DNA of 64,000 bases from Escherichia phage FL23. This document shows positions 377 to 28,233 of the stretch, in pieces (positions within the stretch are counted from its first letter, which is position 1; each line of letters starts with the position of its first letter). The translations under genes were made by a program, and so were the position numbers. Under the pieces are notes generated by a model. The model saw nothing but the letters and a program-made list of their open reading frames with translations. It had not been told where the DNA came from and searched no databases. The DNA lies in the sequence record PP400787; one strand, written 5' to 3'.

Positions 377-655
377 ATGATTATTGATTCTCAATCCGTG
401 GTTCAATACACAATCAAAATTGATATTCTAGAAAAGCTATATAAGTTTCTACCAAACCTATACCATTCAATTGTTAATGAATTAGTTGAAGAACTACATC
501 TTGAGAATAATGATTTCTTAATTGGAACTTATAAAGACCTCTCAAAAGCAGGATATTTCTACGTAATTCCAGCTCCAGGAAAAAGTATTGATGATGTATT
601 AAAAACTATAATGATTTATGTCCATGATTATGAAATTGAAGATTATTTCGAATGA
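377..655 (+). CDS. arn: Arn-like anti-restriction protein (92 aa, acidic)
   Basis: 92-aa ORF next to asiA, sequence recognised as T4 Arn-like; SD AAGGGGA before ATG. Confidence 0.65.
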   Translation: MIIDSQSVVQYTIKIDILEKLYKFLPNLYHSIVNELVEELHLENNDFLIGTYKDLSKAGYFYVIPAPGKSIDDVLKTIMIYVHDYEIEDYFE

Positions 656-804
656 GTCATAATCTTGAAAAGGTAATCGAGCATAATGTAGCTCAGGAAC
701 GTAAGTCGTTCAAGGAATTCGTAGAAAAAATTTTTGAAGAAAATAACACAGACCAGTTTACAAATCAAGCGTCTGATGATATTATAACAAAGTCAACTAA
801 TTGA
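652..804 (+). CDS. small hypothetical ORF (50 aa) between arn and asiA
   Basis: ATG overlaps arn stop (ATGA); not in ORF track (below length cutoff). Confidence 0.35.
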   Translation: MSHNLEKVIEHNVAQERKSFKEFVEKIFEENNTDQFTNQASDDIITKSTN

Positions 805-816
805 GTGGTATAGTTA

Positions 817-1089
817 ATGAATAAAAACATTGATACAGTTCGTGAAATTATTACTGTTGCGTCTATTTTGATTAAATTTTCCAGAGAAGATATTGTTGAG
901 AATCGTGCTAATTTTATTGCATTTCTGAATGAGATTGGAGTAACGCATGAAGGTAGAAAATTAAATCAGAATTCATTCCGTAAAATTGTTTCTGAATTAA
1001 CTCAAGAAGATAAGAAAACCCTCATCGACGAATTCAACGAGGGTTTTGAGGGTGTATATCGATATCTAGAGATGTATACGAACAAATAA
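817..1089 (+). CDS. asiA: AsiA anti-sigma70 factor / MotA co-activator
   Basis: 90-aa protein MNKNIDTVREIITVASILIKF...EMYTNK recognised as T4 AsiA. Confidence 0.9.
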   Translation: MNKNIDTVREIITVASILIKFSREDIVENRANFIAFLNEIGVTHEGRKLNQNSFRKIVSELTQEDKKTLIDEFNEGFEGVYRYLEMYTNK

Positions 1090-1746
1090 TTATTTAGCCC
1101 TTCCTAATATTCTGGCCGCCTGAGCACATATTGATTCAAGGCGGTCATTACTTATATGATCATTTCTATACCAGTACATGGTTATCGTTCCAGCATAGAT
1201 ATTATCCAAATTAAAATATGGACAACTGTACATGTAGTTTATTTCGGGAGTAGGCTTTTTAGTTGGTAAAAAAGCAAATTTTGAGTTGGAATAATAATGA
1301 CGTCCATTTAAATGAACTGCATATTCATCCATAGTTTTATCAACAGGATATCCTCCAAGTGATTTTTCACTTATTGTTGAAGGTAATTTTCCTTCATATG
1401 CTATAATATCAACAAAATAGTTTAAGTTTTTAGGGCGGAAAGAATACACCGCACTAAAGTCTGCCTCAGATGATATATGAACTATCTGGAGTTGTTCCAG
1501 GGCGACAGATTCAAAGCGTGCATTTCTTTCCTTTTCAATAATTTCACTGTATGTTTCATACTTTGATTGCTTGTAGTACTCAAAGAAACTATCTCCCCTA
1601 TACCAAACAATCGCCATTATAAACAAAAGAATTACGACAGCTACCCGGGAAGCAAGAACTTTCCCGGTAGCGTTATCTTTGAACAAGCGATCTAGAACAC
1701 CAAACAGAATATCAGAGGGCGAAAATGATATTCTAGGTGCTGCCAT
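1090..1746 (-). CDS. t: holin t
   Basis: 218 aa, N-terminal MAAPRISFSPSDILFGVLDRLF and one TM segment; T4 holin; downstream of gene 38. Confidence 0.9.
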   Translation of the reverse strand: MAAPRISFSPSDILFGVLDRLFKDNATGKVLASRVAVVILLFIMAIVWYRGDSFFEYYKQSKYETYSEIIEKERNARFESVALEQLQIVHISSEADFSAVYSFRPKNLNYFVDIIAYEGKLPSTISEKSLGGYPVDKTMDEYAVHLNGRHYYSNSKFAFLPTKKPTPEINYMYSCPYFNLDNIYAGTITMYWYRNDHISNDRLESICAQAARILGRAK

Positions 1747-1776
1747 AGACCCTCCTTTTAAGGATATTTATTCAAA

Positions 1777-2553
1777 TTATACTCTTGGACCATATATTGC
1801 TCCAACATTTATCCACGTTGGAGCAGACCCTATAACAGCATAACCAGCAGCGCCGCCATTATATTCAGATCCTTGACCGCGAATATTGCATCTACCTCCC
1901 GCGGAACCTACTTCACCACCGTTTCCGCCGTTATAGATACCATTCACGGATCCTGAGCCAGGTGCAGAAATAGTACCACCAGTCGCGCCTGATTGCATAT
2001 CAATAGATCCGCCTGGCGCACCAAAAGGACGACCGCCACCGCCGCCAAAGGTCAATCTCATTTGTGAAAAAGGAGAATAATATCCGCCGCCACCGCCGCC
2101 GCCACCGCCTGCAATAGCTCCACCATTATTAATTCTTAGTCTCCCACCAATATCGTTTTGAATACAATGACCTCCAGCTGAGCCAGGACTATTGCTACCG
2201 CCATTCCCGCCACGACCATACATCGTTACGCCGTGTATATTTAACTGAACATATTCATTCGGTGTATCTCCGTACATGAAGAATAAAGGAACATCTTTAG
2301 AATATGATACTAAATCTCCAGTGATATTAAACACTATAGGTGCACTACCTGCCTCAAAACATCTATCTCGGAACCATTGACCATTGAAGTTATGGTCTGC
2401 TCCAAGCGTGTGAATTACTTCAACAGATCGACCTATCATATTACTCATCCAAAATGGAATTCCCATTCTCAATCTCTGCGCGGCACCACCCATCCAAGGG
2501 TCTCCAGTTTGTACCCTCGCAGACCATCCTACCCACGGTCCTTCAACTGCCAT
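1777..2553 (-). CDS. 38: gp38 receptor-recognising adhesin, glycine-rich (T2/T6 type rather than the T4 assembly-chaperone type)
   Basis: Poly-Gly tracts ([23 protein letters not shown]) typical of gp38 adhesin glycine-rich motifs; start at second ATG (2553) preceded by GGAGG; ORF track start 2583 probably too far upstream. Confidence 0.8.
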
Positions 2554-2565
2554 ATAAACCTCCAA

Positions 2566-2579
2566 GGGGCCGAAGCCCC
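2566..2579 (-). other. GGGGCUUCGGCCCC tetraloop hairpin in the 37/38 intercistronic region, immediately 5' of the gene 38 SD
   Basis: Plus strand ggggccgaagcccc; 5-bp GC stem with UUCG loop on the minus-strand mRNA. Confidence 0.7.
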
Positions 2580-2584
2580 TCATT

Positions 2585-5500
2585 TTATTTTAACAATGAT
2601 TTGACTAATTTTTTAAGCTCTTCAATCTCTGACTTAAGTTCCGCAATTTCTGTAGTATGTTCATTTATTGCAGCTGTATTTAAACCAATTACACCGTTAT
2701 AGTTCAAACGAAGTAAAGCTTCGCCATCAGGGTCACCTTCAACTAATTCTGGTAAAATAGCTTGAACTTCTTGGGCTATCAAACCGGCGTTAGGTTCCCA
2801 TTTCTGATTGCCTTCTTCGTCCGTTCCACGTTTCTGCATATAAGTGTAACCGTTAATTTTAGAAAGCTTCTGAGAAGCATTTTCAAATTTAACAAGGTCT
2901 TTTTTAACACGAATATCAGAACGGACATAAACATCACGGACAAACGTTGAATAACTATCATTTGCCTGAACGAGATGCCCATGAGAAACGATAGCTCTTC
3001 CAACTTCTGTCCAAAAAGCACCGGTTGAATCCCAAAGCCCAGGATGAGATTGATAGCCTGCTCCCCAGTTTGCAATATGTACACCATTGGCAACCATGTT
3101 AATTCGCCCATCACCACCATGAACTAATCCGGTATCATTATCACCAATAACAAGACATGGTCCAGTCCACGCCGGGTCACCACCGCCAGCCGATAATCTT
3201 GCTCCGGCTTTAACCATGTCAGGAACGTACATGTTTCCATTATAGTGGAATTCGAAGATAGCTTGTGGGTCGGAACCGTTTTCCTGATTACCTACACGAA
3301 TAATACCTTGTGCCCAGTTATTAGGAATGCGTCGCATACCAAAATCAACACCAGATACGTATCCTTCATTCGTAATAACAGATTTTCCTTTGATAATTGG
3401 ATAATAACTATCATTACCGACGTAGCCAAAATCCACAAATATCGGAGCTTCCTGGCGCCATTGATTTCCCCAATCGCCGGCCTGGTGACTGGTCCAGACA
3501 GAGCCATTAATAAAAAGTCGGTCCCTATTAAAATTAAAAGTGGCAGACCCTTCCGGGTTTAAAGCAATATCACCACCATTATTAACATATATGCCTGATC
3601 TATTTTGGAAACTATAAAACGATATGGCATTATCAGCACCACCATTACCTACATACCAGTTATCAACGCCTGCTTTTTGTCCTTTCAAATAGCCAGATTC
3701 GGTTGCCGCGCTATTAATAACGATGGCATCAGAGTTTGCATTAAGAGTTAAGCGACCTGTCAGCGTATCGCCTTCTTTTGAAACACGGCTATAGACAGCA
3801 CCAAGAAGATTGGTTATATCACCGGAAGAATTAAACGTTTTCCAGATATCAGACCAGATGTTACCATTGCGACCAATAGTAGCTTCACCACCACCAACCT
3901 GGACATTATCAGGGAAGTTAACAGTACCGTCTTGATTAAAACGAGACGTATGGCCTTGTGATCCATCTTCTTTCAGATGATGAATAACGAATGTACCCGA
4001 ATTAATTTCAGTACCTAAAGACCAAACGGCTTTACCGTTTAAAAACTTCTGTTTAACAATAGGATAATATTTGCTTACAGCATCATCATCGATTTCCTGG
4101 AAAATAGGAGCCGCTTGAACATATTGAATATCATAACCACCAGCGCCTGCGCCATGACCAGTAAATTTAATATAGCCGTTTGCTGCGAACGTATTGTAAC
4201 TTGATTGTAAATCTGGAATAGTAACTTTACCAGTATCTAAAGCCATACTAAACGGGCGAAGTGGACCGATATCACCATTTTTACCTTCACCATAAGCAGT
4301 TGGAATAATATGAAGACTTCCTTCTGAACGTCTAAAAATAGCTCCATAATCTGCATTCCAAATGCGAAGAGCATTCACTGCTCCAGATGAAATTTCGCCT
4401 GTTGTGTGAACTCCCCTATTTCCAGCAGTAACACCAGATGATTCAAATGAACCGTTAACGTTCATTTCTACTTCACCTGTTGTAAGTCTTTGAATATAGC
4501 TCATCCAACTAGTTGCATCAGAAATTTCCATGACATTTTTACGATTACCTACACTAGGATTAGTAAACGTATTACCCCAAACAGAAATTGTCATATTATC
4601 AACTGAACTACTACCAGTTGTGTTACCTCTAAACAACAGTGTAGAAGCATTATTTATACCATCGATATTAACAGAACCACCAATAACGTCAATATTACCA
4701 GGAGTAACTAACAAACCGCCATGAGTATTAATGTTTGTAGTACCCTTACCACGGAAATAGTGATGATAATTACCGCCTTGATAATATCCTAAAAGAGTCT
4801 GACCATCTCCAAACGCGTTATTATCGTGGTATGTCACTACAGTAGCAAGAGCATAATTTTCAGTTGGAGGAGTAGTTAAATCGGTTCCGTTAGTAGAATA
4901 TCCAGCTACAAATTTTCTTAGGCTAGTTGTTTCGCTTGGACTAAATAAAAACGTTTTTGTGCCATTGTTAACACTGAAATAATATCCGTCTTGATGCCAT
5001 TTAAATCCAGTATCATTATCTCCTAAAGCAATTGAGGACGTTCCTAATTCAGAATATCCTTTAGGGCCGCCTGGGGTGCCTATAGAAATAGAATGACCCG
5101 CTTTCAATCCACCGGACCATGTAAACGACCAAAGATAAGCGTCAAGTCCATCACCTGCATACCAAGTTATCCCATCATTGTCTTTAACCTCATGAAAAAT
5201 ACCTGCACCTACGGCATTACGCATGACACGAAGATGATTAATAGCAGTAGTGCTTTCAGATAATGGGGTGTTATTTGCTAATGAATAGATATCATAATCT
5301 CCTGCCTTCTTCCCGTTTGTAATAACTTTGTCGGTCAGAATTTGTGGAGACGAAATAGATTTCCATGCTGATACTTCAGGTGAAGTAAATAGGCCACTGC
5401 CTGAAAATGCATAAGTGCTTTCGCTACCAGCGGCGTAGTCTTGAACCCTGATATTAAGTACTTGTGTAGTTAAACCATCATTAGCCGGGGAATAAATGAT

Positions 5501-16424: not shown

Positions 16425-17251
<827 letters not shown>

Positions 17252-17271
17252 AATAACGCGTGGCGGAAAAT

Positions 17272-17619
17272 ATGAATTTTAATTATTACCCTATTCTATT
17301 AGAAAAAGACATGAAACAGCCAAAATGGCAAGGTCCTCAGTTTATTAAAGGTGTCTATCAATTAGTAGTTCCTAAAGACAAGATTTATAGCAGTTGTTTC
17401 ACTGAATCCGCTTGCAGTATTTTCGGTAATAGTTCTCCGTATTGGAATTTTGACATAAAGCTGGATAGAAATATCGATATTTGGTTGAAAGCTATGGATA
17501 TTGGTAATATCACGTTTGATGAGAATAATTATCATATTATTGGTCGCTTTTCCAAACGCGGTAAAGAATTATATTTCACGCCTGAAATTGAGAGAAAATT
17601 TGATGCTAAACCGTATTGA
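17272..17619 (+). CDS. hypothetical protein (115 aa) in an insertion between frd and td
   Basis: ATG 17272 (ORF track GTG 17260); no recognised domain. Confidence 0.5.
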   Translation: MNFNYYPILLEKDMKQPKWQGPQFIKGVYQLVVPKDKIYSSCFTESACSIFGNSSPYWNFDIKLDRNIDIWLKAMDIGNITFDENNYHIIGRFSKRGKELYFTPEIERKFDAKPY

Positions 17620-17663
17620 TTATTAGCTTCATAAAATGTATTATAATTTATATAAGGTACTAA

Positions 17664-18212
17664 ATGAAACAATACCAAGATTTAATTAAAGACATTTTTG
17701 AAAATGGTTATGAAACCGATGACCGAACAGGCACAGGAACAATTGCTTTGTTCGGTACTAAATTGCGTTGGGATTTAACTAAAGGTTTTCCTGCAGTAAC
17801 AACTAAGAAGCTCGCCTGGAAAGCTTGCATTGCTGAGCTGCTTTGGTTTTTATCGGGAAGCACAAATGTCAATGATTTGCGATTAATTCAACATGATTCG
17901 TTAATCCAAGGCAAAACAGTTTGGGATGAAAATTACGAAAATCAAGCAAAAGATTTAGGATACCATAGCGGTGAACTTGGTCCAATTTATGGAAAACAGT
18001 GGCGTGATTTTGGTGGTGTAGACCAAATTATAGAAGTTATTGATCGTATTAAAAAATTGCCAAATGATAGGCGTCAAATTGTTTCAGCATGGAATCCAGC
18101 TGAACTCAAGCAGATGGCATTACCGCCTTGTCATATGTTCTATCAGTTTAATGTGCGTAATGGATACCTTGACCTTCAGTGGTATCAACGATCAGTAGAT
18201 GTTTTCTTGGGT
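17664..18212 (+). CDS. td: thymidylate synthase, exon 1 (183 codons)
   Basis: MKQYQDLIKDIFENGYETDDRTGTGT...; exon ends ...gttttcttgggt, intron starts taattgaggcctgag. Confidence 0.9.
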
Positions 18213-19228
18213 TAATTGAGGCCTGAGTATAAGGTGACTTATACTTGTAATCTATCTAAACGGGGAACCTCTCTAGTAGACAATCCCGTGCTAAATTGTA
18301 GGACTGCCCTTTAATAAATACTTCTATATTTAAAGAGGTATTTATGAAAAGCGGAATTTATCAGATTAAAAATACTTTAAACAATAAAGTATATGTAGGA
18401 AGTGCTAAAGATTTTGAAAAGAGATGGAAGAGGCATTTTAAAGATTTAGAAAAAGGATGCCATTCTTCTATAAAGCTTCAGAGGTCTTTTAACAAACATG
18501 GTAATGTGTTTGAATGTTCTATTTTGGAAGAAATTCCATATGAGAAAGATTTGATTATTGAACGAGAAAATTTTTGGATTAAAGAGCTTAATTCTAAAAT
18601 TAATGGATACAATATTGCTGATGCAACGTTTGGTGATACATGTTCTACGCATCCATTAAAAGAAGAAATTATTAAGAAACGTTCTGAAACTGTTAAAGCT
18701 AAGATGCTTAAACTTGGACCTGATGGTCGGAAAGCTCTTTACAGTAAACCCGGAAGTAAAAACGGGCGTTGGAATCCAGAAACCCATAAGTTTTGTAAGT
18801 GCGGTGTTCGCATACAAACTTCTGCTTATACTTGTAGTAAATGCAGAAATCGTTCAGGTGAAAATAATTCATTCTTTAATCATAAGCATTCAGACATAAC
18901 TAAATCTAAAATATCAGAAAAGATGAAAGGTAAAAAGCCTAGTAATATTAAAAAGATTTCATGTGATGGGGTTATTTTTGATTGTGCAGCAGATGCAGCT
19001 AGACATTTTAAAATTTCGTCTGGATTAGTTACTTATCGTGTAAAATCTGATAAATGGAATTGGTTCTACATAAATGCCTAACGACTATCCCTTTGGGGAG
19101 TAGGGTCAAGTGACTCGAAACGATAGACAACTTGCTTTAACAAGTTGGAGATATAGTCTGATCTGCATGGTGACATGCAGCTGGATATAATTCCGGGGTA
19201 AGATTAACGACCTTATCTGAACATAATG
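18213..19228 (+). mobile_element. group I self-splicing intron in td (1016 nt) carrying I-TevI
   Basis: P1/IGS gcctgag pairs with exon end cttgggt; core motifs gtagggtcaagtgactcgaaa and atatagtctgatctgcat; ends ...ctgaacataatg. Confidence 0.9.
18344..19081 (+). CDS. I-TevI: I-TevI GIY-YIG homing endonuclease (intron ORF)
   Basis: 245 aa; GIYQIKNTLNNKVYVGSAKDFEKRWKRH; C-terminal Zn finger and DNA-binding domain. Confidence 0.9.
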   Translation: MKSGIYQIKNTLNNKVYVGSAKDFEKRWKRHFKDLEKGCHSSIKLQRSFNKHGNVFECSILEEIPYEKDLIIERENFWIKELNSKINGYNIADATFGDTCSTHPLKEEIIKKRSETVKAKMLKLGPDGRKALYSKPGSKNGRWNPETHKFCKCGVRIQTSAYTCSKCRNRSGENNSFFNHKHSDITKSKISEKMKGKKPSNIKKISCDGVIFDCAADAARHFKISSGLVTYRVKSDKWNWFYINA

Positions 19229-19540
19229 CTTCCATTTAATATTGCATCATATGCTGCGTTAGTTCATATTGTAGCTAAGATGTGTAATCTTATCCCAGGA
19301 GATTTGATATTTTCTGGTGGTAATACTCATATCTATATGAATCACGTAGAACAATGTAAAGAAATTTTACGTCGTGAGCCTAAAGAACTGTGCGAACTTA
19401 AAATTGATTGGCCTATAGAGTTTGAAAATTGTGACACCGAAACACAGCTTTACTGGTTAACTGAATACATGAAACCGAAAGATTTTATCCTTGAAAATTA
19501 TGAATCGCATCCGGCAATTAAAGGGAAAATGGCAATATGA
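19229..19540 (+). CDS. td: thymidylate synthase, exon 2 (103 codons; spliced product 286 aa)
   Basis: In-frame continuation [21 protein letters not shown]...; frame verified across junction. Confidence 0.9.
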
Positions 19541-19800
19541 TTTTACGATTTAAAGATACTTCTGGCGTTGTTCTTTTTACACTTCCTAACCCAAGCGAGT
19601 TAGAAGTTCCAGGACCAGAACAGCCTATTATCATTTATGGTAAAAAATATTATACTCATAAAATGACTCGTGAGTATTTTGATAATAAAATTTCCACAGT
19701 TAAAACTTCTTCAGATTGTTACTATGATATTACTGTATTAACGGAAAAACAATATGACGAATTATCAACGCGCGGGCCGTCTATGCCAGGTAGTGAATAA
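19537..19800 (+). CDS. hypothetical protein (87 aa) between td and nrdA
   Basis: ATGA overlap with td stop. Confidence 0.5.
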
Positions 19801-20080
19801 ATATAAATCCGACTTTGATGTTAATATTCACCGTGGTACATTTTGGGGAAATTACGTCGGTAAAGATGCTGGCAGCCGGGAGGCTGCCATTGAATTATTC
19901 AAAAAAGATTTTATACGTCGAATTAAATCCGGAGAAATAACTAAAGCACATTTAGAGCCTTTACGTGGAATGAGGCTAGGATGCACATGTAAACCAAAGC
20001 CGTGTCATGGTGATATAATAGCTCATATAGTTAACCGATTGTTTAAAGACGATTTTCAAGTTGAGGACTTATGCAATTAA
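19754..20080 (+). CDS. DUF4326-like protein (C-terminal [12 protein letters not shown] signature)
   Basis: Motif recognition: WGNY... and L.C.C.P..CHGD; overlaps upstream ORF by 47 nt. Confidence 0.5.
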
Positions 20081-21504
20081 TTAATGTTATCAAAAGTAGT
20101 GGTGTTTCTCAGAGCTTTGACCCGCAAAAAATTATTAAAGTTTTATCTTGGGCAGCTGAGGGAACATCAGTAGATCCTTATGAATTATATGAAAATATTA
20201 AATCATATCTCCGTGATGGAATGACCACTGATGATATTCAGACTATTGTCATTAAGGCCGCTGCGAATTCTATTTCGGTTGAAGAACCTGATTATCAATA
20301 TGTAGCTGCACGCTGTTTAATGTTTGCTCTTCGTAAGCATGTTTATGGGCAGTATGAACCACGTTCATTTATTGACCATATTTCTTACTGTGTAAATGAA
20401 GGTAAATATGACCCTGAATTATTGTCAAAATATTCAGCAGAAGAAATTACATTTTTAGAATCAAAAATTAAGCACGAACGGGATATGGAATTTACTTATT
20501 CCGGGGCGATGCAATTAAAAGAAAAATATCTAGTTAAAGATAAAACCACTGGTCAAATTTATGAAACTCCGCAGTTTGCATTTATGACTATTGGAATGGC
20601 ACTGCATCAAGATGAACCTGTTGACAGATTAAAACATGTTATTCGTTTTTATGAAGCAGTATCTACTCGACAGATTTCACTGCCAACTCCTATTATGGCT
20701 GGTTGCCGTACTCCAACTCGACAGTTTAGTTCATGCGTTGTTATTGAAGCAGGTGATTCGCTGAAGTCTATCAATAAGGCTTCTGCTTCAATTGTTGAGT
20801 ATATTTCTAAACGAGCTGGAATTGGCATTAACGTTGGTATGATTCGTGCTGAAGGTTCTAAGATTGGCACAGGTGAAGTGCGTCATACTGGCGTTATTCC
20901 TTTTTGGAAACATTTTCAGACTGCTGTTAAATCATGCTCACAGGGTGGAATTCGTGGCGGCGCTGCTACTGCTTATTATCCTATTTGGCATTTGGAAGTT
21001 GAAAATCTTCTCGTTTTGAAAAATAACAAAGGCGTAGAAGAAAACCGTATCCGTCATATGGATTATGGCGTCCAGCTGAATGATTTGATGATGGAACGTT
21101 TTGGAAAGAACGACTACATCACTTTGTTCAGTCCACATGAAATGGGTGGCGAACTTTATTATTCTTATTTTAAAGACCAAGACCGTTTCCGTGAATTGTA
21201 CGAAGCAGCAGAAAAAGACCCTAATATTCGTAAAAAGCGTATTAAAGCTCGTGAACTATTTGAATTGCTCATGACTGAACGTTCAGGAACAGCAAGGATT
21301 TATGTACAGTTCATTGATAATACGAATAACTATACTCCGTTTATTCGTGAAAAGGCGCCTATTCGTCAGAGTAACTTGTGCTGTGAAATTGCTATTCCAA
21401 CAAATGATGTGAATAGCCAACAAACCCGTTTAATCAAAATTAAGAAGTCGGATGTAGCTAAGTTTTATGAAGCTAATCCTGGCGGTATAATTCAAAGCAA
21501 ATAA
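20071..21504 (+). CDS. nrdA: ribonucleotide reductase large subunit, N-terminal piece (nrdA-a)
   Basis: ATP-cone; FSSCVVIE (Cys225 equivalent); SNLCCEIAIPT (Asn/Cys/Glu active site); then 28 non-conserved codons to stop. Confidence 0.85.
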   Translation: MQLINVIKSSGVSQSFDPQKIIKVLSWAAEGTSVDPYELYENIKSYLRDGMTTDDIQTIVIKAAANSISVEEPDYQYVAARCLMFALRKHVYGQYEPRSFIDHISYCVNEGKYDPELLSKYSAEEITFLESKIKHERDMEFTYSGAMQLKEKYLVKDKTTGQIYETPQFAFMTIGMALHQDEPVDRLKHVIRFYEAVSTRQISLPTPIMAGCRTPTRQFSSCVVIEAGDSLKSINKASASIVEYISKRAGIGINVGMIRAEGSKIGTGEVRHTGVIPFWKHFQTAVKSCSQGGIRGGAATAYYPIWHLEVENLLVLKNNKGVEENRIRHMDYGVQLNDLMMERFGKNDYITLFSPHEMGGELYYSYFKDQDRFRELYEAAEKDPNIRKKRIKARELFELLMTERSGTARIYVQFIDNTNNYTPFIREKAPIRQSNLCCEIAIPTNDVNSQQTRLIKIKKSDVAKFYEANPGGIIQSK

Positions 21505-21549
21505 AGTACACAGACCGTTAATAAATAATCCATAACAAGAGGAAAAGTT

Positions 21550-22260
21550 ATGGATTATTTTAAAATTTACAATAACCTTATTTCTAAAGCTAAGAATAGA
21601 AAATTAGATTGCTATACCGAATCACACCATATTATACCTCTGTGTATTGGTGGTTCTGATACAAAGGAAAACCTGGTAGATTTGACACCAGAAGAGCATT
21701 ACATAGCTCATCAATTATTAGTAAAGATATATCCAGATAATCATAAATTGATATTTGCCGCTAATATGATGTGTGTTTATTCTAAAGATAATATTGAACG
21801 AAAGAACACCAATAAACGCCATGGGTGGCTTAGAAGAAAATTGGCTATTTCTGTATCTGAAAATAATAAAGGCAAACCAGCTTGGAACAAAGGTATTCCT
21901 ATGTCTCCAGAAGTTAAATCTCGACTTCAAACATCTTGGGTGTTTACATTTCCGGATGGTCATGAGGAAATTCATCGAGGTCTTAACGAATTTTGTAAAG
22001 AGCATAATTTAAATCCATCTGCAATGTCAGCCGTTTGTAAAGGTAAACGGTCGCATCACAAAGGATTTAAGTGTAAGAAATTGGATAAGATTTCAGAGCT
22101 TGATAATTTAGTTTTCGTCAGTAAACCTCATCCAAAGGGATTAAAACCCCATAACTTAATTGCTGTAAAAATAAACGGTATAGAATATCAATCAATACAT
22201 CGAGCATCTAAAGCTTTAGGAATTACTAGAAAAAAGGTAGAAGAATTAAATGAATATTGA
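21550..22260 (+). CDS. HNH homing endonuclease inserted within nrdA (MobE-like)
   Basis: CYTESHHIIPLCIGGSDTKENLVDLTPEEHYIAH HNH motif; SD GAGGA; stop overlaps nrdA-b start. Confidence 0.8.
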   Translation: MDYFKIYNNLISKAKNRKLDCYTESHHIIPLCIGGSDTKENLVDLTPEEHYIAHQLLVKIYPDNHKLIFAANMMCVYSKDNIERKNTNKRHGWLRRKLAISVSENNKGKPAWNKGIPMSPEVKSRLQTSWVFTFPDGHEEIHRGLNEFCKEHNLNPSAMSAVCKGKRSHHKGFKCKKLDKISELDNLVFVSKPHPKGLKPHNLIAVKINGIEYQSIHRASKALGITRKKVEELNEY

Positions 22261-23239
22261 TTATGAATTTGTAGATGAATTTTACGAAGATGATGAGTAT
22301 ACTACAATAAAAGTTATTGAAAACAAGGGAGAAGTGGGGCTTTGTACTCTCTCTGCATTCGTACTAGATAATTTTGACTGGCAAGACCAAGATAAAATTA
22401 ATGAATTGGCAGAAGTTCAAGTTCGTGCTCTTGATAATCTTTTGGATTACCAAGGATATCCAGTTCCTGAAGCAGAAAAAGCTAAAAAGCGTCGTAACCT
22501 TGGTGTAGGTGTTACTAACTATGCAGCTTGGCTGGCAAGTAACTTTGCTTCTTATGAAGATGCTAACGATTTAACACATGAACTATTTGAGAGATTACAG
22601 TATGGACTCATTAAAGCATCCATTAAGCTCGCCAAAGAAAAAGGACCTTGCGAATATTATTCAGACACTCGTTGGTCTCGAGGCGAACTACCTATCGACT
22701 GGTACAATAAAAAGATTGACCAAATCGCAGCTCCAAAATACGTTTGTGACTGGTCGTCGCTGCGGGAAGACCTTAAGCTCTTTGGCATCCGTAATAGCAC
22801 ATTATCAGCACTTATGCCATGTGAGTCATCTTCCCAAGTTTCTAACAGTACAAACGGTATCGAGCCTCCACGTGGACCGGTAAGTGTTAAAGAATCAAAA
22901 GAGGGTTCATTTAATCAAGTTGTTCCGAATATTGAGCATAACATAGACCTTTACGACTATACATGGAAATTAGCTAAGAAAGGTAATAAACCTTATCTTA
23001 CGCAGGTAGCTATTATGCTGAAATGGGTATGTCAATCGGCTTCAGCGAATACATATTATGACCCACAGATTTTTCCAAAAGGAAAGGTTCCAATGTCAAT
23101 AATGATTGATGATATGCTATACGGATGGTATTATGGCATTAAAAATTTCTATTATCATAATACCCGCGATGGTTCTGGTACTGATGATTATGAAATAGAA
23201 ACTCCAAAAGCAGATGATTGTTCATCCTGTAAATTATGA
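22250..23239 (+). CDS. nrdA: ribonucleotide reductase large subunit, C-terminal piece (nrdA-b)
   Basis: Own ATG; resumes at GLCTLSAF (second active-site Cys) and runs to the C-terminal DDCSSCKL redox tail. Confidence 0.85.
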   Translation: MNIDYEFVDEFYEDDEYTTIKVIENKGEVGLCTLSAFVLDNFDWQDQDKINELAEVQVRALDNLLDYQGYPVPEAEKAKKRRNLGVGVTNYAAWLASNFASYEDANDLTHELFERLQYGLIKASIKLAKEKGPCEYYSDTRWSRGELPIDWYNKKIDQIAAPKYVCDWSSLREDLKLFGIRNSTLSALMPCESSSQVSNSTNGIEPPRGPVSVKESKEGSFNQVVPNIEHNIDLYDYTWKLAKKGNKPYLTQVAIMLKWVCQSASANTYYDPQIFPKGKVPMSIMIDDMLYGWYYGIKNFYYHNTRDGSGTDDYEIETPKADDCSSCKL

Positions 23240-24848
23240 TATAATTACCACAAGGATGTGGTTAACTAAGAATAACGCTATGTTTGATAATATATACAAA
23301 AACGGAAAGTTTCTTCCATTTGGAGAAGAAAAACTTAAATCTAGACTAACAGAAGAAGATAAAGCTCTTCTAACTGATGGAATAGATTTTAAGCTCAATG
23401 TGTTCCAAATTATGGAAGGCATTGACATTAACGATCTAAAATGTGCAGTTTGTGGAAATTTCATTTCTCTGAAAACGGCAAAGAAACGTGTATTTCCAGC
23501 AACATGTAGTAAATCCTGCGCAGGGATATTTTTCGCGGATAAGAGAATTCAAAGCCGTGATACAAATTTTGGCGGAAAAGAAAAATATAAAAAATATTTG
23601 TCTGAACTTCAACGCAAAAATTCTTTAGAAAAATATGGAACAACTCATCAAAAAATTTCAAGAAATAAAAATAGAAAAACTTTAATTGAACGATATGGGG
23701 TAACGCATAATTCACAATTAGAAAGTGTGAAAGAAGCGAGAAAAGTTATAGAAAACGGTAAATCAGTTGATATTCTGAATTCTAGAAAATCTCGCGAAAA
23801 ATCTAAGAAGACTAAATTAAATTGGACTGAAGAATATAAGGCATCGTTATATTCATCTATAGGAAAATCTATTAAAAATAACGGTCATATTAATCATGAT
23901 ATACTAGATAAAATCAATTACAAAATTTCTATAGAAGAACTACAACAATTAGCAAATTGTTCTCGGATGACGGCTTATAGAGCTCTTTCATCCAAAGGAC
24001 TAATTGACGTTCATTATACTCAAAGTTCTATAGAGCAATTCATTTTAGATCTAGGATTTGATTGCGTAGAAACTAGAAAAATTATTCCTCCGTATGAATT
24101 AGATATTTACATTCCTGAGAAAAAATTGGCTATAGAATACGATGGAATTTATTGGCATTCTAGCGGGTCAAAGGAAACAGATAAAATTAAAGAAACTTAT
24201 CATTTGATGAAGACAGAGATGTGTGAAGCACAAGGAATTCAATTACTTCACATCTTCGAAAATGAATGGATTGATGATACAAAAAGAGAGATCTGGAAAT
24301 CCATTATAAAGCATAAATTAGGATTATCAGAAAGAATACCAGCCCGAAAATGCAAAGCGCGTTTTGTTAATAAGGATGAGGCAAAAGAATTTATTAATAA
24401 GAATCATCTTCAAGGATTTTGCTCGGGAGCTCATACGTATAAAGGACTTTATTACAATAATGAGTTAGTTCAAATTATTTCTATCGGTAAATCTAGATAT
24501 AGCTCAGGTGATGAACTTTTAAGGATGTGTTCAAAATTAGGGATTTGTGTTGTAGGAGGAGCCTCAAAATTATTAAAAGGAATTAATTGTCTATCTTATG
24601 GCAATCGAAGATGGTGCAGTACATTATCAAATGTTTATGACTCTGTCATGGAATTTAGTCATATCTCTGAGCCGTGTTATTGGTATGTCGATAAAGGAGA
24701 GGTATTTCACCGCTCGAGCTATATGAAACATAAGCTTAAAAACAAGCTTAAAAATTATGATGATACAATAACTGAAGTAGAAAATTGTTATGCAAATGGT
24801 CTTAGAAGAATCTGGGACTGTGGAAATTTAGTTTACAGGACAAAATAA
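23214..24848 (+). CDS. large multi-domain putative nuclease (Zn ribbon, repeated YG(T/V)TH motifs, Vsr/DUF559-like core, C-terminal domain)
   Basis: CAVCGN...CSKSC; EKYGTTHQ/ERYGVTHNSQ repeats; LAIEYDGIYWH...LLHIFENEW; start ambiguous (23214, 23256 or 23280). Confidence 0.55.
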   Translation: MIVHPVNYDIITTRMWLTKNNAMFDNIYKNGKFLPFGEEKLKSRLTEEDKALLTDGIDFKLNVFQIMEGIDINDLKCAVCGNFISLKTAKKRVFPATCSKSCAGIFFADKRIQSRDTNFGGKEKYKKYLSELQRKNSLEKYGTTHQKISRNKNRKTLIERYGVTHNSQLESVKEARKVIENGKSVDILNSRKSREKSKKTKLNWTEEYKASLYSSIGKSIKNNGHINHDILDKINYKISIEELQQLANCSRMTAYRALSSKGLIDVHYTQSSIEQFILDLGFDCVETRKIIPPYELDIYIPEKKLAIEYDGIYWHSSGSKETDKIKETYHLMKTEMCEAQGIQLLHIFENEWIDDTKREIWKSIIKHKLGLSERIPARKCKARFVNKDEAKEFINKNHLQGFCSGAHTYKGLYYNNELVQIISIGKSRYSSGDELLRMCSKLGICVVGGASKLLKGINCLSYGNRRWCSTLSNVYDSVMEFSHISEPCYWYVDKGEVFHRSSYMKHKLKNKLKNYDDTITEVENCYANGLRRIWDCGNLVYRTK

Positions 24849-25523
24849 TGAGTACAGTTTTTAATACTAAACAGGTCGATGTTTTAAAAGAACCTATGTT
24901 TTTTGGTTCAGGTCTTGGTATTGCGCGTTATGATATTCAACGGCATCGAGTATTTGAAGAACTTATTGAACGTCAGCTCTCGTTTTTCTGGCGTCCTGAA
25001 GAAGTAAACTTGATGATGGATGCTGCACAGTTTAATAAGCTTCCTCAGTATCAACAAAATATTTTTACTAATAATCTGAAGTATCAATCATTACTTGATA
25101 GTATTCAAGGTCGTGCGCCGTCTGCTGTACTTATGCCATTGCTTTCAGACCCAAGCCTTGATACATGGGTTGCTACATGGACTTTTAGTGAAACTATTCA
25201 CAGTCGTTCATATACTCATATCATGCGAAATCTTTATACTGATCCGTCAAAGGTATTTGATGAGATTGTATTAGATGAAGCTATTATGAAACGTGCTGAA
25301 TCTATCGGTCGTTATTATGATGATGTTCTGACTAAAACCCGTGAATGGGAAAATGCTAAAGAATTTGTAGAACTAGCTAAAGAATCTCCTGATGCCGACT
25401 TTCGTTTAAACCGAGCTATTAAACAAGAAGCCGAAGCTAAACGTGCTTTAATGAAATCTCTTTACCTCTGTTTGCACGTTATTAATGCCTTAGAAGCTAT
25501 TCGTTTTTATGTATCTTTTGCGT
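24848..25523 (+). CDS. nrdB: ribonucleotide reductase small subunit, exon 1
   Basis: LKEPMFFG...RYD...QLSFFWRPEEV...WAFSETIHSRSYTHI...FYVSFA; 5' splice site inferred after gcgt (P1 gcgu/gcgc). Confidence 0.8.
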
Positions 25524-26115
25524 AAAATGCGCCTTTAAACGGTAACGTTTATCGAAAACTCCTTTAATTGCTGGAAAGTCCTTTATAGGAAAACTAGCAG
25601 CCAAGGTTTTGCTTGCACCTTTAATTAGTATAATATGATTATACTTTTAAGAGGATGCACAATTGAACTATAGAAAAATTTGGATAGATGCTAACGGACC
25701 TACCTAAAGATTCTGATGGAAGACCATAAGAAAAGAACATCAGCAAAAACATTAGAAATGGTTAAGAATGGGACCCATCCTGCACAAAAAGAAATCACAT
25801 GTGATTTCTGCGGTCACATTGGTAAAGGTCCTGGATTTTATCTAAAACATAATGACAGATGTAAATTAAATCCAAATAGAATTCAATTGAATTGTCCATA
25901 TTGTGATAAGAAAGATTTATCACCATCAACATATAAACGATGGCACGGCGACAATTGCAAAGCAAGGTTCAACGACTAGTCTTCGGACGTAGGGTCAAGC
26001 GACTCGAAATGGGGAGAATCCCTCTGGGATTGTGATATAGTCTGGTCTGCATAGTAATATGTAGCAGTTCATAAGAGAACGGGTTGAGAATTAGCGAGCT
26101 CAATCGAACATAACG
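25524..26115 (+). mobile_element. group I intron in nrdB (about 592 nt; boundaries inferred, +/- a few nt)
   Basis: Core motifs gtagggtcaagcgactcgaaa and atatagtctggtctgcat shared with the td intron; splice restores FYVSFA-C-TFNF...MEGNAKIM. Confidence 0.75.
25716..25979 (+). CDS. intron ORF, likely a truncated I-TevIII-like endonuclease remnant (Zn-finger region only, 87 aa)
   Basis: CDFCGH...CPYCDK...WHGDNCKARF; no complete HNH/GIY-YIG catalytic motif seen. Confidence 0.55.
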   Translation: MEDHKKRTSAKTLEMVKNGTHPAQKEITCDFCGHIGKGPGFYLKHNDRCKLNPNRIQLNCPYCDKKDLSPSTYKRWHGDNCKARFND

Positions 26116-26618
26116 GTACCTTTAACTTCCATAAAAACATGGAAATCATGGAAGGTAATGCCAAGATTATGAAGTTCATTGCACGTGATGAGCAGCTTCA
26201 TCTTAAAGGTACACAATATATTATTCGTCAACTTCAATCTGGTACTGATGGCGATGAATGGGTTAAAATTGCTCAAGAGTGCGAGCAAGAAGCAGTTGAT
26301 ATTTTCATGGAAGTTAACCGCCAAGAAAAAGATTGGGCAGTTCATTTATTTAAAGATGGCGATGTTCCTGGATTAAATACAAATAGCATGTGGAGCTTTA
26401 TTGATTACTTAACTGTATCTCGTATGAAACAGTGTGGTCTTCCATGCCCAATTACCGATGCTCCGGTTAAACACCCATATCCTTGGATTCGTGAATATCT
26501 TAATTCTGATAATGTTCAATCCGCGCCACAAGAAGTAGAACTGTCATCTTACCTTGTTGCGCAGATTGATAATGATGTTGATGATAAAGTTATGATGAGT
26601 TTTAAAAAATACTTTTAA
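26116..26618 (+). CDS. nrdB: ribonucleotide reductase small subunit, exon 2
   Basis: ...MEGNAKIMKFIARDEQLHLKGTQ...SSYLVAQID; aligns with class Ia NrdB C-terminus. Confidence 0.8.
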
Positions 26619-26622
26619 GGAG

Positions 26623-26644
26623 TGGGCCGCAAGGCCCATTTTAT
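26623..26644 (+). terminator. terminator-like hairpin after nrdB
   Basis: gggcc-gcaa-ggccc followed by attttatt. Confidence 0.6.
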
Positions 26645-26645
26645 T

Positions 26646-28233
<1,588 letters not shown>

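Follow-up and report, generated by a model that had tools for sequence, protein, structure and literature searches.

The split nrdA of Escherichia phage FL23: very probably a two-polypeptide reductase subunit made by an Aeh1-type mobE cassette

In Escherichia phage FL23 (sequence record PP400787), nrdA, which encodes the large subunit of ribonucleotide reductase (RNR), lies in two pieces with an HNH endonuclease gene between them, and our subject here is this arrangement together with the mobile cassette that appears to have created it. The window that we analysed is a stretch of 64,000 nucleotides of this genome; its nrdA region is 100% identical to that of Escherichia phage FL44 (PP400790.1), a Tequatrovirus from pig faeces, and we write 'FL44' for the window allele, which is the reference for all comparisons below. 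An earlier note on this DNA, made without database searches, had placed an HNH open reading frame (ORF) between two nrdA ORFs, with the boundaries given below, and both the ORF list and the Pfam domains bear this out. The features of the locus are as follows.

20071..21504 (+): nrdA-a, 477 amino acids; N-terminal piece of a class Ia RNR large subunit, running through SNLCCEIAIPTNDVNS and then into a 28-residue tail
21418..22342 (+): the whole cassette, 925 nucleotides; tail, spacer, HNH gene, head and recoded loop
21418..21504 (+): NrdA-a C-terminal tail, QQTRLIKIKKSDVAKFYEANPGGIIQSK plus stop, 28 codons; left end of the cassette, absent from intact NrdA
21520..21527 (+): late-promoter-like motif, AATAAATA, with one mismatch to the T4 late consensus TATAAATA; overlaps the start of the hairpin 5' arm
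21523..21560 (+): RNA hairpin, 14-base-pair stem and 10-nucleotide loop; a GAGG Shine-Dalgarno sequence (21539-21542) in the loop, the AUG of the HNH gene (21550) in the 3' arm
21550..22260 (+): HNH gene, 236 amino acids; free-standing homing endonuclease of the Mob family, ortholog of Aeh1 mobE
22250..23239 (+): nrdA-b, 329 amino acids; C-terminal piece with CTLSAF (second active-site Cys), the rest of the barrel and the CSSC tail
22250..22318 (+): NrdA-b N-terminal head, MNIDYEFVDEFYEDDEYTTIKVI, 23 codons; right-hand part of the cassette, absent from intact NrdA
22319..22342 (+): recoded native loop, ENKGEVGL in place of PDAEIGL, in different codons

Pfam assigns to nrdA-a the ATP-cone, the all-alpha domain Ribonuc_red_lgN and positions 1-221 of the RNR barrel, and to nrdA-b barrel positions 219-523. 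In the HNH ORF the I-HmuI NUMOD-like domain scores 37.6 bits, above the cut-off, and the HNH domain is a weak match at 18.2 bits, below its cut-off of 21.4; the catalytic HH...N...H residues of its product are intact, and the protein matches phrog_655 with an E of 4e-59. A spacer of 45 nucleotides separates nrdA-a from the HNH gene, and nrdA-b does have an ATG of its own, as had been proposed, lying 11 nucleotides within the 3' end of the HNH ORF. For the uninterrupted reference allele we used nrdA of Shigella phage SHFML-11, whose exons are 96-97% identical to those of FL44, and the alignment that the earlier note had suggested for locating the break exactly was made against it. The intact allele, which contains AATAGTCCTGATGCTGAAATTGGATTGTGT, encodes ...PTNDVNS-PDAEIGL-CTLSAF, and in FL44 the 21 nucleotides for PDAEIGL are swapped for the 925 nucleotides of 21418-22342, a net gain of 904 nucleotides. 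No native residue is lost at the break, NrdA-a being complete through S449. Of the 20 bases that can be aligned in the recoded loop at the right-hand end, only 9 agree with the intact allele, as against 100 of 100 in the 100 nucleotides that follow, so that the endonuclease's own target, if this is indeed where it lies, has probably been destroyed.

The break falls between the equivalents of C439 and C462 of E. coli NrdA, that is, between the two catalytic cysteines, as the earlier note had it; both the SHFML-11 alignment and the solved E. coli R1 structures agree on this. In those structures NrdA-a can be aligned to residue 454/455 and NrdA-b from residue 454, which puts the break at the tip of a hairpin, between the strand that carries C439 and E441 and the strand that carries C462.

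The arrangement is not an accident of one sequencing project. The full 3169 nucleotides are spanned by 32 phage records, and an HNH protein at least 80% identical to that of FL44 occurs in 34 records, among 806 with nrdA similarity (about 4%). In all six of the alleles that were checked in detail the three ORFs are intact, with lengths that are equal except for nrdA-a, which has 477 amino acids in FL44, HY01 and RPN226 and 474 in F2, AV111 and PTE-Eco05; together with the 32 full-length records, this disposes of the single-base sequencing error that had been raised as an alternative. Indeed, the GenBank records already annotate two nrdA coding sequences (CDSs) and a homing endonuclease. Between FL44 and HY01, the codon differences are 49 synonymous and 0 non-synonymous in nrdA-a, 35 and 8 in nrdA-b, and 31 and 25 in the HNH gene, and such a pattern argues that both halves of nrdA are under strong constraint.

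The obvious point of comparison is phage Aeh1, in which a mobE gene also divides nrdA. The HNH protein of FL44 is 46% identical to Aeh1 MobE over 227 residues (E 1e-57). When Aeh1 MobE was searched by tblastn against a collection of 50,697 phage records, its best non-self matches were the nrdA-internal genes of coliphages (44-48%), followed by MobD-like genes at 31%, and a search with the FL44 protein returned Aeh1 MobE in turn as its closest full-length relative, so that the two are reciprocal best full-length matches. The likeness extends to the whole layout: the same loop is broken by a homologous HNH gene, the upstream half ends in a basic C-terminal tail and the downstream half begins with an acidic N-terminal head, the endonuclease gene overlaps nrdA-b, and a spacer of about 45 nucleotides carries a hairpin that blocks translation initiation of the endonuclease. 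Even the sizes are close, with 473, 237 and 323 amino acids, a 46-nucleotide spacer and a 14-nucleotide overlap in Aeh1, and 477, 236 and 329 amino acids, 45 nucleotides and 11 nucleotides in FL44. The differences are that Aeh1 belongs to the genus Cinqassovirus and FL44 to Tequatrovirus, that the nrd genes have been relocated in Aeh1 and stand at the T4 position beside td in FL44, that the distal part of the NrdA-a tail differs, and that FL44 is known from its sequence whereas the biochemistry is that of Aeh1.

That biochemistry is instructive. The two halves of Aeh1 NrdA are translated independently and form an (a/b)2-beta2 enzyme with normal specific activity (PMC3045599); when both tails are deleted, a/b association is kept, the (a/b)2 dimer and the holoenzyme are lost, and activity falls about 2000-fold (PMC3045599). 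Crona et al. (2011, NAR) describe this solution as distinct from RNA or protein splicing (PMC3045599), and they also report that expression of MobE is inhibited by RNA structure (PMC3045599). Their study builds on that of Friedrich et al. (2007, PNAS), whose results are given here as reported in PMC3045599, PMC2988022 and PMC3653736. The Aeh1 tails have basic and acidic isoelectric points (PMC3045599), and the same pattern is found in FL44, where the computed values are pI 10.0 and a net charge of +4 for the NrdA-a tail and pI 4.05 and -7 for the NrdA-b head. In addition, the tails themselves can be aligned: FL44 QQTRLIKIKKSDVAKF... with Aeh1 KEKMLFKVKKSEVDKF... on the upstream side, and FL44 MNIDYEFVDEFYEDDEYTTIKV with Aeh1 MIEHERIYEVYEDEEYTTVEI on the downstream side. 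In shuffle tests the tail and head comparisons gave z of 6.4 and 7.4, with none of 2000 shuffles as good, and the motifs KxKKSxVxKF and YEDxEYTT are common to the two phages. We think it very probable, then, that nrdA of FL44 encodes a non-spliced, tail-assisted NrdA of two polypeptides that was created by an Aeh1-type mobE cassette. The earlier note had favoured two separately translated polypeptides over an intron, with Aeh1 as its model, and this preference is supported by the homology of the HNH genes, the common layout, the homologous tails and the lack of any ribozyme match.

How general this family is became clearer in metagenome assemblies, where a search with the FL44 HNH protein gave eight further full-length relatives, 50-67% identical, and in all eight of these loci (L090-L097) the gene order is nrdA-a, HNH gene, nrdA-b. 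A scan of IMG/VR with the HNH alignment returned Aeh1 and many Mob relatives that match in the N-terminal domain only and mostly lie in the intergenic position after nrdA; this IMG/VR scan gave no further cassettes of the split type, which came from the larger protein collection. Across ten lineages the stop codon of nrdA-a and the start codon of nrdA-b are kept, and the cores of the tails are nearly fixed, with L[IV]K[IV][KR]KxD[VI]xxF in the NrdA-a tail and IxYExVxExYEDxEYTT in the NrdA-b head each identical in at least eight of the ten. The HNH proteins of the same ten lineages have a mean pairwise identity of 54%, and the contrast implies that the tails are under stronger purifying selection than the endonuclease. 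The 28 tail codons had been called non-conserved in the earlier note, and this holds only when intact NrdA is the standard; among the split genes their conservation is strong.

These observations invite a bolder reading, which we offer tentatively and would rate as plausible, somewhat short of probable. It may be that the sequences coding for the tails are an integral part of a self-contained 'split-and-stitch' homing element, indeed its most strongly selected part, and not the by-product of one ancient accident. The pair LIKIKKSDVxxF and EFYEDDEYTT is nearly invariant, while identity of the endonuclease goes down to about 46%. On the same reading, the tails prolong the two native beta-strands that flank the break and may therefore pair between the two chains as a two-stranded beta-ribbon, with Lys facing Glu across the strands; they would then be a natural, portable tag for fragment complementation.

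In FL44 the hairpin at the start of the HNH gene has a predicted dG (folding free energy) of -14.5 kcal/mol and a z of -4.4, with none of 200 shuffles as stable. In seven lineages, 94.7% of the cells are paired, compared with about 38% when the partners are slid. Compensatory changes are seen at three pairs, and only one of 500 shuffles reached the covariation score. The hairpin is likely to be a translational repressor of the endonuclease. In Aeh1 the corresponding structure has 13 base pairs and buries the Shine-Dalgarno sequence, whereas that of FL44 buries the AUG and leaves the Shine-Dalgarno sequence in the loop, and the two have no sequence homology. For I-TevI, I-TevII, I-TevIII, segB and Aeh1 mobE, late transcripts start too far downstream to include the inhibitory structure (PMC2988022), and by analogy the late-promoter-like motif of FL44, which overlaps the hairpin 5' arm and is present as exact TATAAATA in L090, L092 and L096, may function as a late promoter. 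A generic scan for sigma-70 promoters and terminators over 19900-25000 gave counts at the level of shuffled sequence.

There is also good evidence of movement. Split alleles are found in several Tequatrovirus species and in one Mosigvirus (AV111), and the comparison of FL44 with PTE-Eco05 is particularly telling: identity is 79% in the nrdA exons and rises to 99.6-100% in the tail, spacer, HNH gene and head (about 99.8% for the cassette), a disparity that speaks for recent lateral spread. The boundaries are sharp, with native polymorphisms resuming 15 nucleotides from the left junction and within 0-21 nucleotides of the right one. RPN226, with T4-like exons, and F2, with divergent exons, have in common a right-flank tract, TGTACCCTTAGCGCATTTGTG, that belongs to neither exon lineage, and such a mosaic is the kind of co-conversion that homing leaves behind. 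The cassette itself is mosaic too, since the middle third of the HNH gene (21881-22115, the NUMOD-like DNA-binding region) exists as two variants of about 70% nucleotide identity, one in FL44 and PTE-Eco05 and the other in HY01, RPN226 and AV111, with F2 chimeric, and these variants reassort independently of the nrdA exon lineage. The pair of tail cores travels with the endonuclease gene into new nrdA alleles over at least three genera of Straboviridae, and the cassette appears to be moving still.

A mechanism can be proposed on this footing. The 925-nucleotide cassette of the Aeh1 mobE type would occupy the hairpin loop that joins the two active-site strands of NrdA, at E. coli residues 454/455, where it would furnish the upstream half with a basic extension of 28 codons and a stop, followed by the 45-nucleotide spacer and the HNH gene, and the downstream half with a new ATG (within the end of the HNH gene), an acidic extension of 23 codons and a recoded copy of the loop. 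Neither RNA splicing nor protein splicing would be involved. The oppositely charged tails, needed in Aeh1 for an active (a/b)2-NrdB2 enzyme, would by homology be needed here as well, and by bringing its own tails the cassette could insert without cost to enzyme function. On early and middle transcripts the hairpin over the start codon would silence the endonuclease; late transcripts that begin at the motif in the 5' arm could not form it, and from these the endonuclease would presumably be translated. The element would then home into the uninterrupted nrdA genes of co-infecting T-even phages.

The alternatives need to be weighed with some care, and we begin with splicing. A self-splicing group I or II intron containing the HNH ORF would restore a continuous nrdA frame, and it is a reasonable thought in a window that has two genuine group I introns, in td and nrdB; in addition, removal of the net insertion of 904 nucleotides would give an exon junction of native length, and the roughly 190 nucleotides of non-HNH sequence come near the size of the smallest group I introns. 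A wide Rfam scan (17000-28000) found the nrdB intron only and missed that of td, so it was not a valid negative, and it was repeated on stretches of about 1 kb with permissive filters and the td intron as control. The ORF-containing td intron was then detected as Intron_gpI (RF00028 model) at 42.5 bits (E 3e-9), whereas 21380-22380 gave no intron match at E up to 10, with only chance-level snoRNA-like matches at E > 0.2; this is the covariance-model scan that the earlier note had recommended. The group I core motifs that it quoted lie at 19103-19168 (td intron) and 25992-26052 (nrdB intron) and, as it maintained, are absent from the nrdA insert, a search of the rest of the window finding none even with three mismatches allowed. 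Just ahead of the junction FL44 has a C and F2 a T, so that this position is not a fixed U, and the homologous Aeh1 element yields two polypeptides. The flanks of the HNH gene are coding, in the exon frame and conserved as protein across ten lineages, which is incompatible with a ribozyme core, and we regard an intron as extremely improbable. We would say much the same of the proposal that the tails are halves of a split intein and that trans-splicing joins NrdA-a to NrdA-b, as in metagenomic 'fractured' nrdA. Fractured nrdA genes in which split inteins go together with a free-standing endonuclease gene are certainly known (Dassa et al. 2009, PMC2677866), and two (L027 and L030) were recovered here; Crona et al. 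considered that the Aeh1 tails might derive from a degenerate intein (PMC3045599); and L033, where a GIY-YIG gene interrupts nrdA in the same loop, has a tail that resembles an N-intein (z 6.45). Like nrdA of FL44, the fractured genes have their break close to the active site and a free-standing endonuclease gene in the middle, except that their break is at the C439 codon, with trans-splicing N- and C-inteins, whereas that of FL44 is 10 residues downstream, after S449. Against trans-splicing stand the ends of the FL44 tails, of which the first begins QQTRL, with Gln in place of Cys or Ser, and the second ends ...GEVGL before the Cys, and not in His-Asn; their lengths of 28 and 23 residues, far below those of the L027 and L030 intein halves; a Pfam scan of NrdA-a and NrdA-b giving no Hint or intein domain; and the presence of both separate chains in the active Aeh1 enzyme. 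An origin of the tails from a degenerate split intein, suggested by eye by the likeness of 'IEH...VY.D' to block F, was tried and rejected, since the FL44 and Aeh1 tails compared with the L027 and L030 intein halves gave z below 2.3, in a shuffle test whose power is demonstrated by the L033 tail.

It might also be thought that the split gene is a decaying pseudogene, nrdA having been killed by the insertion and the host reductase being used in its place. Phage nrdA is non-essential in laboratory hosts, which lends the idea some credence, and yet it is hard to square with three ORFs intact in six alleles of six and varying in length only in nrdA-a (477 or 474 residues), with synonymous to non-synonymous changes of 49:0 and 35:8 in the two halves, with tails kept across ten lineages and with the normal specific activity of the homologous Aeh1 enzyme; we consider it very unlikely. 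Finally, a different Mob endonuclease could have entered the same exposed loop by convergence, independently of Aeh1. The 2022 preprint discussed below does term other insertions 'independent but similar', the loop has been struck by another type of endonuclease in L033, and the regulatory hairpins of Aeh1 and FL44 lack sequence homology. Convergence is nonetheless highly unlikely in our view, given that the HNH genes are reciprocal best full-length matches, that such specific tail motifs are held in common at high significance, and that eight lineages, with HNH proteins 50-67% identical to that of FL44 (46% for Aeh1), bridge the gap.

The two-polypeptide, tail-assisted NrdA that we prefer has of course its own weak points, and we gather them here. 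Separate translation, absence of splicing and the activities of both enzyme and endonuclease are attributed to FL44 by homology to Aeh1 and by conservation, and should be taken as predictions. T4 nrdA is dispensable when host RNR is present, so that a weaker enzyme would be tolerable to the phage. The late motif of FL44 has one mismatch and is of a kind that AT-rich DNA often contains; the hairpin model comes from FL44 itself, with only seven related sequences in support, and L093, L094 and Aeh1 fold differently. Direct contact between the tails would be a conjecture for Aeh1 too, where dimerisation and NrdB binding depend on them and a/b association does not (PMC3045599).

Several of the contigs that came up in this work are worth describing in their own right. 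The IMG/VR contigs L027 and L030 hold, in their first 2500 nucleotides, fractured nrdA of the Dassa 2009 type, with the N-intein directly after SNLC, a free-standing endonuclease gene (of 322 amino acids, or a 242-amino-acid GIY-YIG gene) and then a C-intein ending ...LVHN before CEI.LPT, and they have a second, Mob-like HNH gene after the nrdA stop. In L033 (IMGVR_UViG_3300042400_000402, 3-2441), the NrdA-a tail KLSLDDGTEVLIPGQHKVLLSNGDMKKVRELTEDDDI... is similar to the block-B region of split N-inteins, at the z given above; there is no N-terminal Cys block and no HN-Cys junction in the downstream half, and a full intein lies further upstream in the same gene, and what now serves as a tail here may be the decayed remnant of a split intein. 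L092 (ENA ERZ14207129 NODE_16, 607-4187) has a complete intein in nrdA-a at the C439 site as well as a mobE-type split some 10-12 residues downstream; its nrdA-a product of 614 amino acids has PT-HINT and Intein_splicing matches and reads ...ILVHN|CLEIAIPT, and two different selfish elements are thus found within about a dozen codons.

Other phage systems offer partial parallels to the FL44 cassette. T4 mobE (Wilson and Edgell 2009, PMC2790892) also belongs to the Mob HNH family and is also associated with the nrd operon, and, with the FL44 HNH protein as query, the N-terminal nuclease domain of mobE from phage RB59 matches about 56% of it at about 46% identity; T4 mobE, however, stands between nrdA and nrdB and splits nothing, whereas the FL44 gene is inside nrdA. 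A further parallel is the T4 topoisomerase of gene 39, mobA and gene 60, where a Mob HNH gene likewise splits an essential enzyme into polypeptides with terminal extensions; Crona et al. remarked on a similar charge pattern there (PMC3045599), and conserved extensions are reported in the 2022 preprint. It differs in its target gene and in a 50-nucleotide translational bypass. With the td intron of T4 and its I-TevI, the nrdA element has in common a homing endonuclease gene within a gene of nucleotide metabolism and a translation block by RNA structure that late transcripts escape; what it lacks is the ribozyme.

In 2010 the split of Aeh1 was described as the only one of its kind in 1200 nrdA sequences (PMC3045599), and the earlier note did not recall anything of the kind for a T-even coliphage. 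This overstates the novelty, given the approximately 34 deposited T-even records and a mention in 2022: a preprint of that year refers, as unpublished, to nrdA genes with MobE inserted in them in 'Aeh1 and several others' and has 'MobE_split' sequences in its supplement. Beyond this remark of one sentence, our literature search found no published description of an nrdA split in a T-even coliphage, and the genome papers of vB_EcoM_112 and of fPS-2/fPS-90 do not mention one. What emerges is that the 'genes-in-pieces' reductase of Aeh1 is not a one-off: it belongs to a family of mobile cassettes that about 4% of the deposited T-even-like genomes carry, as do several uncultured lineages. To the biochemistry of Aeh1 the comparison adds modestly, in tail cores that outconserve the endonuclease, and so give evolutionary evidence of tail function, and, again modestly, in movement between genera with sharp boundaries and a conserved arrangement of hairpin and late promoter. 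Since FL44 and its relatives infect E. coli K-12, they should make homing, tail function and fragment assembly accessible to tractable genetics, more easily than in Aeh1. For annotators, the message is that two 'nrdA' CDSs in such phages should be neither fused nor called pseudogenes.

The surroundings of the split gene are also rich in selfish elements. Immediately downstream, at 23214-24848 (+), an ORF of 544 amino acids overlaps the end of nrdA-b by 26 nucleotides and occupies the slot between nrdA and nrdB that in T4 is taken by mobE. The ORF encodes a Hef-like homing endonuclease (phrog_3339, E 7e-152; weak Pfam match to REase_MTES_1575), 65% identical to a gene of Yersinia phage phiR1-RT and present in about 16 records at 95% identity or more, and it is called 'hypothetical' in the FL44 record. 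The region 18000-26700 is thus a dense endonuclease island in which four selfish elements, namely the td group I intron with I-TevI, the mobE-type cassette of nrdA, the Hef-like gene and the nrdB group I intron, are lodged in about 8 kb among three adjacent genes of nucleotide metabolism. The two introns are placed as follows.

18344-19081: I-TevI ORF in the td intron; Rfam intron match at 18950-19180
25824-26064: Rfam match of the nrdB group I intron

On the upstream side, an ORF of 108 amino acids at 19754-20080 (+) overlaps the start of nrdA-a by 10 nucleotides, and its positional counterparts upstream of nrdA-a in related contigs are annotated as DUF4326 (PF14216), the ORF being conserved there in several lineages (L091, L094, L095 and L097).

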